From the NCBI GenBank assembly GCA_046759605.1, contig JBHICL010000001.1:1-43694 (forward strand): a DNA stretch of 43,694 nucleotides. The letters are read 5' to 3'. The stretch comes from Alphaproteobacteria bacterium. GTDB taxonomy: Bacteria; Pseudomonadota; Alphaproteobacteria; UBA6615. A program made the position numbers and the translations under genes. Under the pieces are notes generated by a model. It had not been told where the DNA came from, made no database searches, and was given only the letters and a program-made list of their open reading frames with translations. This document shows positions 9,806 through 38,295 of the stretch, piece after piece (position 1 is the stretch's first letter; each line of letters starts with the position of its first letter).

Positions 9806-10026
9806 CCCACCTCCTCGAGAAACTGCCGCCCGGGGGGCCAGTTCATCGCGCAAGACGGCGGTCAAGATGGATCACAGGTAGGGGAGCTGGCGCGGGGAGG
9901 CAAGGCGCATGGGCGCGAAAAATGTTGACAAATTAGACAAATAGAGAGAATTAACTAGAATTCAGTTAATCACCCTCGACACCGCAAAAACATCCGTACA
10001 GGAATTCGTCACCACATAGAACAATG

Positions 10027-23798: not shown

Positions 23799-23842
23799 CG
23801 CGTGTTGGAGATCACGCGCGGGGGGCTGTGTGAGGGAATGGA

Positions 23843-24550
23843 ATGCTTACCAGAAAACAATACGAACTTCTCGTCTACATCAACCAGTACTTGTCGGAGA
23901 ACGGAGTCTCTCCCTCGTTCGACGAGATGAAGGATGCCCTGGGGCTGAGGTCGAAGTCGGGTATCCACCGCCTGATCACGGGTCTCGAGGAAAGGGAATT
24001 CATAAAGCGGCTGCCGCACCGGGCACGGGCGCTCGAGGTGCTCCGGCTGCCGGAGGACGTTACCGTCGACAGGGGACGGCGACCGGCGCGCTTCGACCCT
24101 CAGGTGATCGAAGGCGGGTTCCCCTCCGGTCGCGGCGCGGAGGACGTGCCGCCCGGACAGGACGACAGGGCGGTCCCGGTTCCGCTGCTGGGCCGCATAG
24201 CCGCGGGCACGCCGATCGAGGCGCTCAGGGATACCTCCCATCTGGTCGGCATCCCCGCCGCGCTCTTGGGAAGCGGTGAGTACTACTGCCTCGAGGTCGA
24301 AGGCGACTCCATGGTGGATGCCGGCATCCTCGACAACGACGTCGTCGTCATCGAGCGTTGCGATACGGCGGAGAACGGCTCCATCGTCGTGGCCCTGGTG
24401 GAGGCACAGGAGGTCACTCTCAAGCGCCTGCGCCGACGGCACAATTCCGTGGCGCTCGAGCCTGCCAACCGCAATTACGAAACTCGGATATTCGGACCCG
24501 ATCAGGTGGAGATCCAGGGGCGGCTGGTCGCCCTGGTACGCCGCTACTGA
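23843..24550 (+). CDS. lexA: LexA repressor
   Basis: 235 aa: winged-HTH N-terminus ([17 protein letters not shown]...), Ala-Gly cleavage region [11 protein letters not shown], and S24 peptidase Ser (VEGDSM) and Lys (TLKRL). Confidence 0.95.
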
Positions 24551-26775
24551 CCCCCCGATCTCTCTCGACGACCTGCTACAGGTACCCAGGGACGGCGACC
24601 GCGAATCTCGTTCGCGCTCTCGACACGGACGCCGGACGCGTCCGCTTGCGGGGACGTGAGCCAGAAGGCGTGGCCGCCGTCCCGCCAGAGGTCGAACCGG
24701 TCGACCACGATCACTGGTCTCGAGCACGCCCGGGGCACCGCGACGGTGGCGATCACCACGTCGGCGCGGCGGCAGTCTTCGACCAGCGCGCGTTCGTCGC
24801 GAACGAGCGCGACGACCCGATCGTGGGCGCGGTAGATACACCCGAGGCCGTCGCACCGTAGCCGGCCGTCGGACGAGAGGCCGTCGCGGGGAAAGGTCGT
24901 CCAGGTGTCCACCCCTGCGCTGCGCAGCCAGGTAACACGGCTGAACGGCGCCGCCCGCCGGCTCGACACGAGGTAGCCGCCATCGGCGCCGCGTACGGCA
25001 GCGAGCTTGCCGTCGCCGGTGATGAGCACATCGGCCGGCCGGGTCAGGCCCAGCGAGGCCAGTCCGGCCAGCACCGGGAGCAGCCCGAAGCAGCGCCACC
25101 GCCGTCTGAGGAGCATCAGCCACAACCCACCGGCGACGATGGCGACATAGCCGGCGAGGGGCATGGCGGGCGCCAGCTCGACCGAGCCCGGCCAGGAGGC
25201 GACCACGTGGGCGGTCGCGATAACGCCGTCGAGGCCCCACCCCATGGGGATGAGCGCCAGACCCTCGAACCCGAAAGGCATCAGGGCGAACGCGGCCACG
25301 GCCCAGGGCATCACCCACAGCGCGGTCAGCGGAACCGCGACAAGGTTTGCCGCCAGGCCGAACACGGCGACGCGGCTGAAGTGGAAAAGGGCGACGGGCA
25401 TCGTGGCGAGCCCCGCGATGAGCGTCGTCAGGGCGACGCCGCCGAGGTACAGCCCCGCTCGCTCGGCCAGACCGGCTTCGCGGTACCATATGCGCAGTCT
25501 GTCACCCAGCGCCTCGTAGACGGCCACCAGCGCCAACGCGGCGGCAAAGGACATCTGGAAGCTGGCGCCGAGCAACGTTTCCGGCCGCAGAACCAGGATC
25601 ACGACGGCCGCCCAGGCGACCAGGCGCATCGAGATGCCGGTGCGGTCGAGCATGACCGCCAGCAACACCAGTCCGGTCATCATGAAGGCGCGCTGCGTCG
25701 GCACGGGCGCTCCGGCCAGGAGGAGGTAAGCGAAGGCGACAATCAGGGCGATGGCGGCCGCCCACTTCTTCACGGGATAACGCAAGACCACCGCCGGCCA
25801 CAAAGCCAGGCCACCGCGGATCGCGAAGAACACGATCCCGGCAACGAGGCCGATGTGCAGACCCGAGATCGCCAGCAGATGCGCCAAGCCGGAATCGCGC
25901 ATGGCGGTCAGGGTCTCCGGCGGAATGGCGCCCCGCTCACCCGTCATCAGGGCCGCCGCCACGCCACCCGTGGCGCCCTCGAGGCTCGCCGTCACGCGTT
26001 CGAAGATCACACGGCGCACGCCGGCTATCCGGCGCGCGCTGGCCCGTCTCCAGCCCAATTCCATCTGCCCGGCCGGCCGAACGACCGTCGGTCGACCGAA
26101 GGCAAAGCCGACCGCTCCGATTCGCTGGAACCACGCGCGCCGCTGGAAATCGAAGCCGCCGGGTATCGCCGGCCCGGGCGGCGGCACCAGCGCGGTGCGC
26201 AGCGTGACCAGATCGCCCGCACCGACGTGCGGGACACCTCCACGCGCCCAAACCCGCACACGGACGCGCGCCGGCGTTTCGTGCTCGTCGAGCCGCCCTA
26301 TCTCCAACGCCTCGAGGACCAGGCGATATGCGCCGGCCATGGGGTCGATCTCGGCCACCAGGCCCGTGATCTCCACTCCGCGAAGCTCACGGGTCAACAC
26401 CGGCGCCGAGACCAGCGCACCACGCAACTGCGCGGCCGCGAAACCGGTGGATGCGCCGGCCAGGGCAAACGCCACGAGCAGCGCTCCCGGCCACCGCCCG
26501 TCCGACCCTTGGCGAAACAACAGCGCCAGCACGCCGAGAGAACCGACAACCGCCAGGGCACCGAGCCAGCCTGGCGGCTCGGCATGAAGAGCGAAGTACC
26601 CGGCTATGCCGCATCCCAGGGCCACAGGCAGCCAAAGCGCCCACCGATCGCGCTCCGCGGCCAGCTCGGCGCTCAGCCACCGCCGCAAGGGACGAACGGC
26701 CCGCTCCGCGTGCCCCTCCCACGGCTCGCGCGGCGTCGCCGTCATGACCGGCGCCGCCGGCTGTTTCGACGCCAC
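24544..26775 (-). CDS. comEC: ComEC/Rec2 family DNA internalisation channel protein
   Basis: 743-aa polytopic membrane protein with the competence-domain motif [14 protein letters not shown]. Convergent with lexA (7-nt overlap). Alternative start at 26745. Confidence 0.88.
26363..26418. repeat. 56-bp comEC-internal segment (copy 1) that recurs at 27826-27881
   Basis: Aligned by eye: 53/56 identical to 27826-27881. It encodes ComEC residues [19 protein letters not shown]. Confidence 0.9.
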
Positions 26776-26845
26776 GCGCTGTCCGGGGGAGGAGGCGAAG
26801 GAAGGGATTTACTGGCTGACAACGTTACCCGACACCAGGATGAGC

Positions 26846-26897
26846 AGCACGCCCCCTGTTTGAGAGACAAACCGCCGTTGTGCTACACACCGCTCAC
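26846..26897. repeat. 52-bp direct repeat, copy A (left border of insertion; native comEC-gltX spacer sequence)
   Basis: agcacgccccctgtttgagagacaaaccGccgttgtgctacacaccgctcac is 51/52 identical to 27888-27939. It contains the palindrome GTTTG-agaga-CAAAC (26858-26872). Confidence 0.95.
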
Positions 26898-26907
26898 GCG
26901 CTGGGCC

Positions 26908-27369
26908 CTATGCAGCCTGGCGTTCCTCCTCCCAACCGCTCTCAGCTTCCTTGAATATGGCGGCTTCTGTCTGCTCAAGCTCGTCTAGTTCCTTTAGCAA
27001 CTTGACGATCCGCTTGGCACGGGCGTGTCCGACTTTCTCCAAGGCATAGAACAGCCTCAAGAGGCGGTCAGCGGGTCCGTTAATTGCCTCGCTAGGCTTA
27101 CCCTCCCAGCGGGCAATCGTGGACCGCGTGACATCCAGTATCTTGGCTAGGGTACCTTGAGAGATGCCCAGCATGGACCGCAAGTATCGTAGCTCCTGTC
27201 CCCGTATGCGCCGGGGGGAGGCGATAATCATCATGGCGATGACATCATGCAGACCGTCCATGTCCTCGATGGTTATAGACGGGCCGTGTTCGGTCTGCTT
27301 CTCTGTGAACCCGTTCGCCAGGTACACATAGTCTAACCCACATCCCGTGTAGTGGTGGCAGTTGTTCAT
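26908..27369 (-). CDS. putative antitoxin: MqsA-like / XRE-family HTH protein with degenerate N-terminal zinc-ribbon-like domain
   Basis: 153 aa from ATG 27369 (MNNCHHYTGCGLDYVYL...). Classic XRE HTH: GQELRYLRSMLGISQGTLAKILDVTRSTIARWEGK, followed by ADRLLRLF. The ATG overlaps the upstream gene's TGA (ATGA at 27366-27369). Confidence 0.65.
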   Translation of the reverse strand: MNNCHHYTGCGLDYVYLANGFTEKQTEHGPSITIEDMDGLHDVIAMMIIASPRRIRGQELRYLRSMLGISQGTLAKILDVTRSTIARWEGKPSEAINGPADRLLRLFYALEKVGHARAKRIVKLLKELDELEQTEAAIFKEAESGWEEERQAA

Positions 27370-27704
27370 CTTAGCCAGTCCATCCATTCCACTGTCCGAA
27401 CGTAAAGACGTTCGCCCTCCCTGAAGATGACGGTTACGACCCCGGCTTCTCTCGTGCCGGGCATTCGTTTCGTCATGATGACCTTCCAATCGCCATGGTC
27501 GAGCAGTTCTGGTTCGCCTTCAACATGGCCGGTACGTAAAATTCGCAGAACTTCCACCGTCGTGATAGCCCTCTCGTCTTGCCGCTCCAGGGCATGCGGA
27601 TGCCAGCCAATGTTGCTTGTATCTCTTGCTCGCTGGTGAACCAGTTCTTCGGCTTGGTCTGCTCGCAGGTTGTCCCAATGGATAGGTCGCTTCCGAAAGG
27701 GCAT
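27366..27704 (-). CDS. putative toxin: DUF4258-like small protein (HAxxRxxxRxI motif)
   Basis: 112 aa from ATG 27704 (MPFRKRPIHWDN...). WHPHALERQDERAITTVEVLRILRTG and the later GVVTVIF resemble my recollection of the DUF4258 pattern. Alternative ATG at 27770. The track ORF start at 27863 is a comEC-derived GTG. Confidence 0.6.
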   Translation of the reverse strand: MPFRKRPIHWDNLRADQAEELVHQRARDTSNIGWHPHALERQDERAITTVEVLRILRTGHVEGEPELLDHGDWKVIMTKRMPGTREAGVVTVIFREGERLYVRTVEWMDWLR

Positions 27705-27726
27705 CGGGTCGTCATGATGTGCTATT

Positions 27727-27751
27727 TTGATACAACCTGTTCCATTATCAA
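27727..27751. promoter_or_regulatory. perfect 6-bp inverted repeat TTGATA-N13-TATCAA in an AT-rich stretch upstream of the toxin ATG (candidate operator/promoter)
   Basis: Read directly. It lies 23-47 nt upstream of ATG 27704 in the lowest-GC part of the island. On the minus strand TTGATA could serve as a -35, with CAAAAT 16 nt downstream as a -10. Confidence 0.35.
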
Positions 27752-27825
27752 GTGTATTAAAATGGTACATCCAAAAAGGGCGTGCACCGACCAAGCTGGG
27801 AGAGGTACAGGCGGTGAACAGTTCC

Positions 27826-27881
27826 CCCGTGATCTCCACCCCGCGAGGCTCACGGGTCAACACCGGCGCCGAAACCAGCGC
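27826..27881. repeat. 56-bp comEC-derived fragment (copy 2) at right edge of insertion
   Basis: 53/56 identical to 26363-26418, in the same orientation. It is joined through the 6 nt ttaagt to repeat copy B. The minus-strand reading frame is closed by TAA at 27882-27884. Confidence 0.9.
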
Positions 27882-27887
27882 TTAAGT

Positions 27888-27939
27888 AGCACGCCCCCTG
27901 TTTGAGAGACAAACCTCCGTTGTGCTACACACCGCTCAC
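27888..27939. repeat. 52-bp direct repeat, copy B (right border; immediately upstream of gltX)
   Basis: 51/52 identical to 26846-26897. It ends 18 nt before the gltX ATG; GAGGA lies at 27944-27948. Confidence 0.95.
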
Positions 27940-27957
27940 ACCCGAGGACAAGCGTGA

Positions 27958-29358
27958 ATGACAGTCGTCACCCGGATAGCGCCCTCGCCGACCGGATTCC
28001 TCCACATTGGCGGCGCCCGCACGGCGCTGTTCAACTGGCTGTTCGCACGCCACCACGGAGGCACGTTCCGGCTGCGGATCGAGGACACCGATCGGGCCCG
28101 CTCCACGCCCGAGGCCATCGACGCAATACTGGACGGGCTCAGCTGGCTCGGCATCGACTGGGATGGAGATGTGGTTTACCAGTCGCGCAACAGGGAGCGC
28201 CACCGGGAGCTGGCACTTGCGCTTCTGGAAGCGGGCAAGGGCTACCGCTGCTACGCCACGCCCGAAGAGCTGGCCGAGATGCGTGAGAAGGCGCGCGCCG
28301 AGGGAAGGACCAGGCTCTACGACGGTCGTTGGCGCGAACGCAATCCCGCGGAAGCGCCACCGGGCATAGACCCCGTGGTCCGCATCAAGATGCCGTCCGG
28401 CGGCGAGACCGTCATCGATGATGACGTCCAGGGTATCGTCCGCGTCGCCAACGACCGGCTCGACGATTTCGTCCTGCTGCGGGCCGATGGCACGCCTACC
28501 TACATGTTGGCGGCGGTCGCCGACGATCACGACATGGGCATCACGCACATTATTCGCGGCGACGACCACCTCAACAACGCTGTGCGCCAGTATCACCTCT
28601 ACCGCGCCCTCGGCTGGGAGGCGCCCAGGTTCGCTCATATTCCCCTGATCCACGGGCCCGACGGCGCCAGGCTGCAGAAACGCCACGGAGCACTTGGCAT
28701 CGGTGCCTATCGCGATATGGGCTACCTGCCCGAGGCCATGCGGAATTACCTCGCGCGCCTGGGCTGGAGCCATGGCGACGACGAGATATTCACGACCGAT
28801 CAGGCGATCCGGTGGTTCGGCCTCGATGCCGTGGGGCGATCGCCCGCCCGTTTCGATCTCGCCAGGCTGGACAGTCTCAACGGCCATTACATCCGGGCCG
28901 CCGACGACCGGCGTCTGGTGGACCAGATCCTGCCGAGGATCGAGGACATGCTCGGCCGGTCGCCGGATGCCGCGATGGTCGAGCGGCTGATCAAGGGCAT
29001 GTATAGCTTGAAGCAACGCGCAAAGACCCTGGAAGAACTGGCTGAAAAATCTATGATATATTGCCGCTCGGCCCCTTTGCCGATCAGCGAGAAGGCGGCC
29101 CGACTGCTGGACAGCGAGGGTCTCGGGCACCTGGGTGGGCTGGAGCCCCGGCTGAGGGCGCTGGAGCGCTGGGGCGAACCGGAGCTGGAGGCGGCAATAC
29201 GAGAATACTGCGAAACCGCCGGTGTGAAGCTCGGAAACGTAGCTCAACCCTTACGCGCAGCACTCACGGGTTCGACCGTTTCTCCGAGCGTTTTCGAGGT
29301 CATGGAGGTGCTTGGGCGCGAGGAGGTGCTGGCAAGGGTCTCGGCGGTCACCGGGTAG
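27958..29358 (+). CDS. gltX: glutamate--tRNA ligase
   Basis: 466 aa with the class I HIGH region ([20 protein letters not shown]) and the GluRS core ([29 protein letters not shown]). Confidence 0.95.
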
Positions 29359-35411: not shown

Positions 35412-35990
35412 CTACTGCTGCGGCGAATTCTCGGTAACTTCTATTTTGACGGATGGAAGTCGTTGGTCGAGCCGGGACAGCGCAGTTGCCGTGAAGTCGG
35501 ATACATTGCGGGCGAACACGATCTGCGACCGCTGCAAGACGACGTTCACACCTTCCTCACGAGCCATCTTGCCTATCTCCTCGAACAGCACATTCTGAAT
35601 CTGCCGCATCGAGGATTCGAACGCCCCATCGAGCACACGCCGCACCTCCTGCACCCGACGGTTCAGACCGGCCGCGTCCTTCTGAAACTGCTCGCGCCGC
35701 TGGGCGTAGATCTCGGGCGCCAGGATGGTCCGTTGCTGCTGAAGCTCCCGCTCGACGGCGCGAAGCCGGTTTTCCTCCTCCGAGATCTCCTGGCGGTACC
35801 GGGCCTGGATCTGCTCGAGCTGCTCCCGTGCGGTCGCCACGGCGCTCGCCTCGCGCATGACCGCCTCGATGTCCACCACCGCTATGACGGCGGCGCTCTG
35901 CCCGTCCTGCGCCATTGCGCCGCCCACGGCAAGGTGAATCGAGCCAAAGGCGCAAACGATCAATGCGCGGAACAAAGAGGTCTGTACCAT
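35412..35990 (-). CDS. skp: OmpH/Skp family periplasmic chaperone
   Basis: 192 aa with a signal peptide and a coiled-coil Gln/Arg/Glu-rich body. Conserved bamA-skp-lpxD position. Confidence 0.8.
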
Positions 35991-35994
35991 GACG

Positions 35995-38295
35995 CTAGAA
36001 CCTCGTGCCGAAATTAAGTCGAAGCGCCTCGGTCTCGTCGAAGTCTTCCTTGAGCACCGCCTGAGACAGGTCGACTCGAATCGGACCGAATGGCGACCGC
36101 CAGCCTACGCCAACTCCAATCGATGCGCGAATCGAAGCTTCGTCCTCGATGGATGGGCCGCCCACGTCGAGGTCCGTCAGCGTGCCGAAATCGCTGAAGA
36201 CGCTCATGTCGATACCCAACTCCTCCGGCAGGCCCGTGGGCAACTGCAGCTCCGCCGTTCCGGAAAAGACCTGTTTGCCGCCGAGGGCATCGTCGGTGGC
36301 AAGGTCACGCGGGCCAACACCCGCGGTCTTGAAGCCGCGCAGGTTGGCGCCGCCGAGAAAGAAGCTGTCGACGATGCGCACGTCGTCCCCGATGCCAAAG
36401 ATATAGCCCGCTTCGGCGGATAGGCCCAAGATCACGTTCTGGCCGAAAAGCGGCAGGAAGTATCCCGCTTCCACCTCATTACGAAGGAACTTGATTGTTC
36501 CTGGGGGCGACGCCAGGTCGACCTTGTACCTGGCAAACACGCCGTCCGTTGGTTGGATGCGGCTATCCAGCGCGTCGAAGAAGAACTCGTTGCCGATTAT
36601 CGAGGATACTTCGCTACCTTCCTGCTGCTGAATGGCCAACGATGCGTCGTCCTGCACGTTCGAAATATCGTCTCGGGACAGGGTGTAGCGCAAATTGTGG
36701 CGGATCCGCGGCGAGAACTGGTAGCCGGCGCGCAAGCCGAAACCCACCTCGTCCTCCTCGAAGGAGCTCTCACTGGTAAAGTCGGTCCGCGTCCTGAACA
36801 CGTCGAATCCCGCGCTGAGATTGCGATCGAGAAAAAACGGGTCGGTGAAGCTCAGATCGATCTGCTGCTGCTCCTGCGCAAGGGTGAGGCTGAGCCGAAG
36901 GTCCTGGCCCCGGCCGAGAAGGTTGCGCTCGCGAATGGACAGATCGCCGAGCAGTCCCGGTCCGGTTGAGAAGCCCGCGCCGACCGACAGTTCGCCGGTC
37001 GACTGTTCGACCACGTCCACGTTGACCACCGTCTTGTCGGGCGCCGAGCCCGGGTTGTTTTCTACGTCGATTCGGCTGAAGTATCCGAGGTTCCTGAGCC
37101 GTTGCCGGGAACGACGCACCTTGGCCGTATTGAAGGCATCGCCCTCGACCAGCTCGAATTCCCGCCGGATCACCTTGTCCAAGGTGCGGAGATTGCCGGT
37201 AATGTCGATGCGCTCCACAAACACACGCGGGCCCTCGCGCACGTCGTAGGTGACGCCGATCGTGCGTTCCTCGCGGTCCCGCCGGACCCGCGGACGCACG
37301 TCTACGAACGCGAAGCCCTGCGCGCCGGCCGCATCGGTAATGACTTCGAGCGTCTCCTCGACCTCGTCCGCGTTGTAGAACCGGCCCGGCTCGGTGACCA
37401 CCAGCGCTCTCAGTACCTCGGGATCGAGATCGCGGATATCCGCAACGACGTCGATATCGCCGAAGCGGTAGCGCTCGCCTTCCTCGACGGTGAAAGTGAT
37501 GATGAAGGCTTCCCGATCCAGGGTCAGCTCGGCAACGGCGGAAACGACGCGAAAGTCGGCATACCCTTCCGCCAAGTAGAAGCGCCTGAGCAGCTCGCGA
37601 TCGAACGTGAGACGGTCGGGGTCGTAGGTGTCATCCGCCGTGAAGAACCGGTAGAAGCGGCTCTCTTTCGTCTGGACCACGCCGCGCAACGTGCGATCGC
37701 TGAATCTCTCGTTGCCGATGAAGCTGATCCTGCGGATGCCGGTGGCCGGACCTTCGTTGATCTCGAACGCCAGATCGATACGGTTCTCCGGAAGCTGGAT
37801 CACTTTCGGCTCGACCGTGGCGGCAAACCGGCCGGAACGTCGATACAGCTCCTGGATCCGCTGAACATCCTGCTGGACTTTGGTGCGCGTGAACACCACG
37901 CGCGGTCTCAGCGAGACCTCGGCGGACAACGTCTCGTCGTCGATGCGGTCATTACCTTCGAAGGCGATGCGATTGATGATGGGGTTCTCCACCACCTGGA
38001 CGATCAGGCTGTCGCCTTCGCGTCTCAGGGTTACGTCGGCGAAGAGCCCCGTGTTGAACAGGCTCTTGAGGGAGCGGTCCATACGCTCCACGTCGAAGGC
38101 ATCACCCGGCTTGAGCTCCATGTAGGACATGACGGTCGACGGCTCGATCCGGCGCGTGCCCACGACTCTGATGTCACGGATCGTCTCCGTCGTCTGAGCG
38201 AACGGAGGCCCGGCGTTGGCGCTGACGAGAAACACGGCTGCGGCCACGAGCACACGAGCCAGGACGCGCTGGAGCTTGGACCGTCGCGGCGGCAC
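35995..38295 (-). CDS. bamA: outer membrane protein assembly factor BamA
   Basis: 766 aa with a signal peptide, repeated POTRA-like modules (IRDIRVVGTRRI..., INRIAFEGN..., IRRISFIGN...), a C-terminal beta-barrel and a terminal F. Confidence 0.95.
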   Translation of the reverse strand: MPPRRSKLQRVLARVLVAAAVFLVSANAGPPFAQTTETIRDIRVVGTRRIEPSTVMSYMELKPGDAFDVERMDRSLKSLFNTGLFADVTLRREGDSLIVQVVENPIINRIAFEGNDRIDDETLSAEVSLRPRVVFTRTKVQQDVQRIQELYRRSGRFAATVEPKVIQLPENRIDLAFEINEGPATGIRRISFIGNERFSDRTLRGVVQTKESRFYRFFTADDTYDPDRLTFDRELLRRFYLAEGYADFRVVSAVAELTLDREAFIITFTVEEGERYRFGDIDVVADIRDLDPEVLRALVVTEPGRFYNADEVEETLEVITDAAGAQGFAFVDVRPRVRRDREERTIGVTYDVREGPRVFVERIDITGNLRTLDKVIRREFELVEGDAFNTAKVRRSRQRLRNLGYFSRIDVENNPGSAPDKTVVNVDVVEQSTGELSVGAGFSTGPGLLGDLSIRERNLLGRGQDLRLSLTLAQEQQQIDLSFTDPFFLDRNLSAGFDVFRTRTDFTSESSFEEDEVGFGLRAGYQFSPRIRHNLRYTLSRDDISNVQDDASLAIQQQEGSEVSSIIGNEFFFDALDSRIQPTDGVFARYKVDLASPPGTIKFLRNEVEAGYFLPLFGQNVILGLSAEAGYIFGIGDDVRIVDSFFLGGANLRGFKTAGVGPRDLATDDALGGKQVFSGTAELQLPTGLPEELGIDMSVFSDFGTLTDLDVGGPSIEDEASIRASIGVGVGWRSPFGPIRVDLSQAVLKEDFDETEALRLNFGTRF

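Follow-up and report, generated by a model that had tools for sequence, protein, structure and literature searches.

The DUF4258 family, comprising about 6,000 proteins, is listed by Gerdes (2025) as PF_DUF4258 among the BECR-fold toxins of type II toxin-antitoxin (TA) systems, and 17 DUF4258-MqsA fusion proteins are recorded in the same work (PMC11980606). Zhang et al. (2012) described the same domain as Ntox49, a predicted BECR ribonuclease (RNase) with a conserved "H, [KR]" signature (PMC3482391), and a 2026 preprint, which also equates DUF4258 with Ntox49, assigns it to the BECR fold's colicin-like branch (10.64898/2026.08.28.747851). Surveys based on SLING already treat DUF4258 as a TA toxin (one of them: PMC8790059), and an E. 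coli CdiA-CT with a DUF4258 domain (type 8 toxin) is listed elsewhere as "tRNase (?)". The DNA analysed here (the window) is the complete 43,694-bp contig of a metagenome-assembled genome (MAG) deposited at NCBI and labelled "Alphaproteobacteria bacterium". The spacer between comEC and gltX is split in this contig by two minus-strand genes, which probably constitute a horizontally acquired, self-contained type II TA operon encoding a DUF4258 (Ntox49) toxin and an antitoxin of the XRE helix-turn-helix (HTH) type, acting by the mechanism proposed below (Table 1). Since DUF4258 has already been catalogued together with its MqsA fusions, the pair belongs to a known family and not to the new kind of TA module suggested in an earlier note on this DNA (PMC11980606, PMC3482391). 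The new detail in the window is the insertion scar, made up of the spacer repeats R and R' and the comEC copy X'.

As far as a comparison of sequences can tell, the reading of the two genes as a TA pair is well supported. The toxin-first order with a stop/start overlap, proposed in the earlier note, was borne out by the coordinates of the open reading frames (ORFs), and homologous loci are arranged alike. In a survey with one genome per species, an antitoxin homologue was found directly downstream of the toxin gene and on the same strand in all 22 loci of toxin relatives; these come mostly from alphaproteobacteria (Rhodospirillales and their relatives), and one is from a MAG of the Comamonadaceae. 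An overlap of 1-4 nt is also present in loci L001, L008, L009, L012, L024 and L031-L035. The reverse look-up gave the same picture: each of four distant antitoxin homologues (31-43 % identity) has directly upstream a gene of 97-116 aa which overlaps it by 1-4 nt and matches DUF4258 at E = 6e-10 to 3e-3. Among plasmids only one toxin homologue was found, on a Skermanella megaplasmid, and there the pair is annotated as "DUF4258 domain-containing protein" and "helix-turn-helix domain-containing protein". The pair is thus adjacent, with the toxin first, in 27 other loci (22 + 4 + 1 plasmid), and the survey of homologues found the two genes together in every readable locus, as the earlier note had anticipated.

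In four loci (L021, L024, L027 and L028) the toxin gene is frameshifted, truncated or interrupted and a recognisable antitoxin gene remains; decay of the toxin with retention of the antitoxin is the pattern that would be expected of a harmful gene. Apparent toxin frameshifts lie at 4001-4307 of L021 and 1540-1868 of L024, and at 4001-4553 of L028 (Skermanella aerolata) the toxin is truncated and the antitoxin frameshifted. L027 (1239-4141, Acetobacteraceae MAG JASHOA010000078.1) contains two toxin fragments about 2.6 kb apart, followed by an intact antitoxin gene; the gap encodes a large serine recombinase of 687 aa (Resolvase + Recombinase + Zn_ribbon_recom + HTH_17) along with a DUF5372 protein on the opposite strand, and it looks like a recombinase-bearing element was inserted into the toxin gene.

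The homologues lie in unrelated neighbourhoods, several of them integrase islands or a prophage-like region. Among more distant members, the pair in L031 adjoins a phage-type integrase and a RES-domain toxin, the pair in L032 is part of a prophage-like block which also contains an integrase, a Sak recombinase and an S24 repressor, and that in L034 adjoins an integrase fragment and a VapE-like primase. The embedding between an SOS/competence locus (lexA, comEC) and gltX, to which the earlier note had attached meaning, did not hold up as a functional clue: no functional link was found, homologues occur in unrelated contexts, and the position appears incidental.

Such surroundings bear on the possibility that the pair is mainly a phage-defence (abortive infection) module, in which infection would be the trigger and the arrest altruistic. 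This view is compatible with the TA operon proposed here; as the main role of the pair it is conceivable, though doubtful. It is favoured by the location of homologous pairs in integrase islands and a prophage-like region, beside a RES toxin and a VapE-type primase, by the full-length match of the antitoxin to the phage family phrog_5119 (E = 7e-28), and by the framing of RelE/ParE-superfamily toxins as defence toxins by Gerdes (2025; PMC11980606). It is opposed by the outcome of the PADLOC search, which gave only generic HTH matches for both proteins, by the absence of toxin homologues from 50,697 phage genomes, and by the window locus itself, which has no neighbouring defence genes.

The upstream gene of the TA pair encodes the toxin. 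Its ORF runs from 27366 to 27863 and was called as 165 aa mechanically and as 157 aa by NCBI (P0001), but the start is most likely the ATG at 27704, giving 112 aa, since in each of the 37 homologues the protein starts shortly ahead, by a few residues, of a conserved PF(R)RPIxW motif. Versions of 134, 157 and 165 aa were rejected, because the homologues start at PFRRPI and what these versions add lies upstream of the promoter. The two longest also begin inside the comEC duplicate X', and the N-terminus of the NCBI protein (MEITGELF...) is a chimeric annotation artefact. The 112-aa protein gave the PF14076 (DUF4258) match predicted for this gene in the earlier note, with 25.7 bits and E = 1.5e-5 over residues 35-105, marginally over the gathering cut-off of 25; the 165-aa ORF, with 24.5 bits, falls under it. 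PF14076 matches 26 of the 37 homologues at E ≤ 0.01.

The motif HPHALERQDERAI occupies toxin residues 35-47. H37, R45, G59, R85, A87, G88, V89, T104, W107 and D109 are invariant among the 37 homologues, and R41 is conserved in at least 90 %; H37 and R45 correspond to the "H, [KR]" signature of Ntox49 (PMC3482391). The AlphaFold2 (AF2) model of the toxin (pLDDT 86.8) consists of an N-terminal helix, helices 36-45 and 49-58, and strands 73-80, 86-94 and 100-109, an order of elements that agrees with the pre-alpha + alpha + beta layout of colicin-like BECR proteins. In BFVD the model resembles unnamed phage proteins with a TM of 0.6-0.7, and the matches include a DUF4258 phage protein.

The downstream gene encodes an XRE-type HTH protein, as the earlier note had foreseen. 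The NCBI call starts at the ATG at 27387 (159 aa); the start at 27369 was favoured because homologous loci overlap by 1-4 nt. HTH_3, HTH_19 and HTH_31 match at residues 57-104, and in the AF2 model (pLDDT 94.3) an N-terminal beta-hairpin region is followed by the HTH (about residues 57-112), then by a long helix and finally by a beta-hairpin at the C-terminus. The best structural match of the antitoxin is HigA2, over the HTH only. The family is large, with 715 representatives at E ≤ 1e-10.

The description of this protein as MqsA-like could be kept in part. A C-terminal XRE HTH is present and TIGR03830 (MqsA family) is matched by all 74 antitoxin-family members as judged by E-value, but the bit score known for the window protein is 34.5, where the cut-off is 61.8, and of the 127 profile positions only 42-116 are matched by it. 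The zinc-binding CxxC domain is missing: the window antitoxin has C4 and C10 only, with no CxxC pair, and the 74 sequences show no invariant or nearly invariant cysteine column. The E. coli MqsA chains align over the HTH only, with E of 0.07-0.25, worse than the P22 C2 repressor. In view of the sub-threshold TIGR03830 match, the lack of conserved cysteine pairs and the fact that E. coli MqsA is no closer than phage repressors, the antitoxin is MqsA-related at most and outside the MqsA family.

A 17-bp palindrome, TGTAYCA-N3-TGRTACA, is found upstream of the toxin gene in about 21 of the 27 loci: 12 carry it in exact form and nine more with 1-2 mismatches, never farther than about 80 nt from the first residue of the toxin that aligns. 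At up to 2 mismatches the 43.7-kb window contains two such sites (0.04 expected), both at the TA promoter, for which the scan of 26700-28000 gave a single sigma-70-like match: the proximal O2 overlaps its -10 hexamer, and the distal O1 abuts its -35 hexamer. This layout is standard for autorepression by a dimeric HTH antitoxin, which is accordingly predicted to bind here.

The proposed mechanism is as follows. A dimer of the antitoxin would bind the O1 and O2 palindromes through its HTH and repress the operon, and the parts outside the HTH, the N- and C-terminal beta-hairpins, would bind and block the toxin. Loss of the antitoxin through proteolysis, transcription shut-off or phage attack would release free toxin, which would arrest growth. 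As a predicted member of the colicin-like BECR branch, the toxin would be a metal-independent RNase whose most likely substrate is tRNA or some other RNA of translation. The catalytic acid/base would be H37, which lies on the pre-alpha helix, and R41, R45 and R85, together with T104, E106 and D109 of beta4, may line the pocket.

A number of points weigh against this reading. The Pfam score of the window toxin is marginal. Foldseek against PDB returned nothing for the toxin at E ≤ 0.001 (best E = 0.16, TM about 0.4); the match of highest probability (0.80) was HigB2, with a TM of 0.40 and E = 0.17, which is not significant. A profile search of PDB sequences gave no match to the toxin, and the only candidates for a solved-structure homologue from phmmer were noise-level matches to S100P. 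Since no significant PDB match was obtained, the BECR assignment rests on the literature class of DUF4258 and on the predicted topology. The tRNase activity is borrowed by analogy from colicin-like relatives and from the "tRNase (?)" entry for CdiA-CT. The earlier note had stated that DUF4258 proteins have neither an established activity nor an antitoxin pairing, and the first half still stands, Gerdes (2025) giving the activity of the DUF4258 TA toxin as "unknown" with no references; a pairing, in contrast, is on record in the DUF4258-MqsA fusions (PMC11980606). One toxin homologue, on JGI contig P0003, has no called downstream plus-strand gene. As to the acquisition of the operon, no GltX match above about 70 % identity was found among 5.8 billion proteins, and the mechanism of insertion described below was inferred from one scar. 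Finally, a survey table for Pseudomonas syringae puts DUF4258/CdiA under "DNA double strand break" (PMC8790059).

The last entry would suit a toxin whose target is not RNA, acting by DNA damage or by non-catalytic inhibition in the manner of ParE of the same superfamily. The inclusion of the gyrase poison ParE among the BECR-fold families and the lack of significance of the structural matches to known RNases point the same way. Such a target is nevertheless improbable: the invariant His and Arg on the pre-alpha helix fit the catalytic layout of colicin-like RNases, and the domain is classed as an RNase fold both in PMC3482391 and in the preprint 10.64898/2026.08.28.747851.

More improbable still is a pair without toxicity, left over from a prophage or island in decay, namely a repressor with a small accessory gene that has no growth-inhibiting activity at present. 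The cassette has been trimmed to a bare operon without a mobility gene, several homologous loci are visibly decaying, and relatives reside in an integrase island and a prophage-like region, all as a remnant might. In the window, however, both genes are intact and keep every invariant residue of the family, the promoter and both operator sites are preserved, and so strict a pairing in 27 loci of diverse context speaks for a two-gene unit under selection.

Table 1. Features of the probable TA operon, the proposed insertion scar and the flanking genes in the 43,694-bp window
Feature	Position	Strand	Remarks
Toxin gene	27366-27704	-	112 aa; DUF4258/Ntox49-type, predicted BECR-fold RNase; PF14076
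Antitoxin gene	26908-27369	-	153 aa; XRE-type HTH; HTH_3 25.6 bits (cut-off 23)
ATGA overlap of toxin stop and antitoxin start	27366-27369	-	From ORF coordinates and sequence
Promoter-like site	27724-27751	-	TTGATA (27751-27746), 16-nt spacer, CAAAAT (27729-27724)
O1, distal operator-like palindrome	27753-27769		Palindrome with 1 mismatch; abuts -35 hexamer
O2, proximal operator-like palindrome	27718-27734		TGTAYCANNNTGRTACA, with 2 mismatches; overlaps -10 hexamer
Foreign DNA, bare TA operon	26898-27825		928 bp; low GC and GC3; absent from the L029 and L030 spacers
X, source segment inside comEC coding region	26363-26418		56 nt; 95 % identical to 27826-27881; blastn E = 2e-19
X', diverged comEC copy	27826-27881		56 nt; encodes ...LTREPRGVEITG...; upstream of TA promoter
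R, left spacer repeat	26843-26897		55 nt; ends at left edge of insert; 96 % identical to 27885-27939
R', right spacer repeat	27885-27939		Directly upstream of gltX start 27958; 96 % identical to 26843-26897
comEC	24544-26775	-	Pfam Competence + DUF4131
gltX	27958-29358	+	Pfam-confirmed GltX

The low-G+C gene pair of about 1 kb splitting the spacer, which was the starting point of the earlier note, was recovered in the G+C (GC) profile, in the GC at third codon positions (GC3) and in the ORFs. The 928 nt of foreign DNA have a GC of 0.553, the contig minimum for windows of that size (mean 0.667, sd 0.031, z = -3.6); the next-lowest non-overlapping window of 928 nt reaches about 0.595, at 35931-36860. 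In a 200-nt profile, GC is 0.49-0.585 across 26800-27900 and 0.62-0.76 on both sides, and the lowest 60-nt window of all (0.30) lies at 27717-27776. The GC3 of the toxin and antitoxin genes is 0.575 and 0.70, respectively, against 0.80-0.85 for lexA, comEC, gltX and gltA; LexA and citrate synthase (gltA) were likewise assigned by Pfam. On one side the foreign DNA reaches only 10 nt past the antitoxin stop codon; on the other, about 56 nt separate the distal operator from the upstream edge of the foreign DNA. No integrase, transposase or other mobility gene was found in the insert, ARAGORN found no tRNA or tmRNA in the contig that could have served as an integration target, and Rfam gave nothing at gathering scores, the spacer yielding only a chance-level match.

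The two nearest relatives found, L029 and L030, have GltX proteins 68-69 % identical to that of the window and keep the gene order moeA-lexA-comEC-gltX-gltA-lpxB. Their comEC-gltX spacers measure 116 and 170 nt with no intervening gene, and the window spacer minus the insert would measure 140 nt. These spacers do not align with that of the window, and the comparison is one of gene order only, the lineage having no close sequenced relative. The GltX of the window itself was not among the top matches of the search of 5.8 billion proteins. The uninterrupted spacer of the two relatives agrees with the composition in marking the segment as a foreign insertion, as the earlier note had proposed. Its count of exactly two genes is correct for the minus-strand ORFs, but the region also carries two pairs of direct repeats which that note did not describe.

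One pair is formed by R and R', which blastn aligned over 52 nt at 98 % identity (E = 8e-22). The other is formed by X, which lies in frame within the intact comEC ORF, and X', which is a non-coding rearrangement scar. X' sits three bases to the left of R', whereas in the original arrangement X is about 425 nt from R, and exact identity within the two repeat pairs extends over 28 and 25 nt at most. The insert opens with 7 nt (26898-26904, GCGCTGG) that are reverse-complementary to the 7 nt at the end of X' (27875-27881, CCAGCGC); this may be accidental, or a microhomology may have served in the rearrangement. Two other roles for R were considered and set aside: as a structured RNA it gave folding z-scores of -1.4, +1.1 and -0.8, indistinguishable from shuffles, and it was not called as a canonical sigma-70 promoter in the promoter scan. 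An exact-match scan of JGI metagenomes with the 27-nt core of R returned nothing. The cassette is also not a repeat-flanked mobile unit: no direct repeats flank the pair in 19 other loci, and the repeats of the window are therefore specific to a single event rather than a trait of the cassette.

The simplest reading of the scar is a duplication followed by a deletion. The stretch from X to R (about 535 bp) would have been duplicated on either side of the incoming DNA, through fill-in of distant staggered breaks or through homology-facilitated illegitimate recombination with DNA of a sister strain. The redundant 5' part of comEC would then have been deleted from the right-hand copy, leaving gltX with its native upstream sequence. 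The 4-5 % divergence of the repeat copies is compatible with age as well as with a donor from a sister strain. An assembly chimera, in which strain variants or an unrelated contig were joined in the MAG through short shared k-mers, would suit a metagenome assembly with repeats of about 55 nt (a common assembler k-mer size) and copies differing by 4-5 % as those of co-existing strains might, but it is highly improbable because the repeats are inexact, with exact runs of 28 nt at most, because X' and R' are host-like sequences on the insert side of the junctions, which places the foreign DNA within DNA of the same lineage, and because the same three junctions would still have to exist in some strain.

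Elsewhere in the contig, the second-lowest-GC kilobase (35931-36860) lies within or adjoins a 766-aa minus-strand ORF (35995-38295). In this contig of 67 % GC, a short AT-rich patch (60-nt windows with GC ≤ 0.40) lies at 9901-10005, the only one of comparable extent apart from the TA promoter, and single low-GC windows occur near 23836 and 41781.

DUF4258 is among the last BECR-fold toxin families without an assigned activity or target, and well-defined members should aid the design of experiments. This analysis adds a coherent clade of alphaproteobacteria that includes cultured hosts (Novispirillum itersonii ATCC 12639, locus L009; Gluconobacter roseus B4931, L020; Nitrospirillum sp.; Acidisphaera sp.; and Skermanella sp. 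TT6 with its plasmid pTT6-2, L035), a strictly conserved partner, the candidate operator TGTAYCA-N3-TGRTACA and candidate catalytic residues. The window copy, from an uncultured MAG, is no more than a tidy example of a bare TA operon beside an essential gene with a scar recording the rearrangement. A bolder proposal, speculative and on balance unlikely in its entirety, is that the clade represents the first type II TA system to pair a tRNA anticodon nuclease like colicins D and E5 with a zinc-less, fully folded MqsA-related repressor which would clamp the toxin with beta-hairpins at both ends, and that transformed DNA brought the cassette in next to comEC through homology-facilitated illegitimate recombination. 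Should it hold, the cultured hosts and the defined operator would offer a tractable entry to the activity of the roughly 6,000 DUF4258 proteins.

The window pair has most in common with the DUF4258/Ntox49 toxins themselves. It shares with them a threshold Pfam match, the His + Arg/Lys signature, a small stand-alone toxin beside a neutralising partner (neutralisation being predicted here) and a partner with an MqsA-type HTH; the toxin-antitoxin order is already found in the DUF4258-MqsA fusions, and the modelled pre-alpha + alpha + beta topology may be a further common trait. It differs in that the alphaproteobacterial clade adds, outside the Pfam core, a conserved 34-residue N-terminal extension (RPIxWxxLRxDEAE) and a C-terminal TVEWMDW. 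The DUF4258 systems of Gerdes (2025) usually have the antitoxin-toxin order, whereas here the toxin comes first. In Synechocystis, the DUF4258 protein slr1421 pairs with a HicB-like antitoxin, unlike the window toxin with its HTH partner.

HigBA2 of Vibrio cholerae (PDB 5JAA, 8A0X) shares the toxin-first operon and a BECR-fold toxin, the latter predicted here. It also has an XRE HTH dimer binding a palindromic operator and a separate neutralising part, both of which are predictions for the window antitoxin. The highest-probability PDB match of the toxin and the best PDB match of the antitoxin, weak as they are, both come from complex 5JAA. HigB2, however, is an mRNase that depends on the ribosome and belongs to the RelE branch, while DUF4258 has been assigned to the colicin-like one. 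HigA2 neutralises by a disordered N-terminus, whereas for the window antitoxin a complete fold with a beta-hairpin at either end is predicted.

With MqsRA of E. coli the window operon shares the toxin-first order and an antitoxin with a C-terminal XRE HTH, and MqsA represses its own promoter at a palindrome. This operator, ACCT-N-AGGT, differs from that of the window; moreover, the window toxin is not MqsR (PF15723) and the window antitoxin lacks the CxxC...CxxC zinc domain.

The colicin D/E5 and CdiA-CT tRNases belong to the same proposed colicin-like BECR branch and have the catalytic His on the pre-alpha helix, a position predicted for the window toxin, and by analogy they suggest tRNA as its likely substrate. 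They differ in acting between bacteria, as toxins that are secreted or delivered and are matched by dedicated immunity proteins, whereas the window module is an intracellular two-gene unit with a DNA-binding antitoxin.

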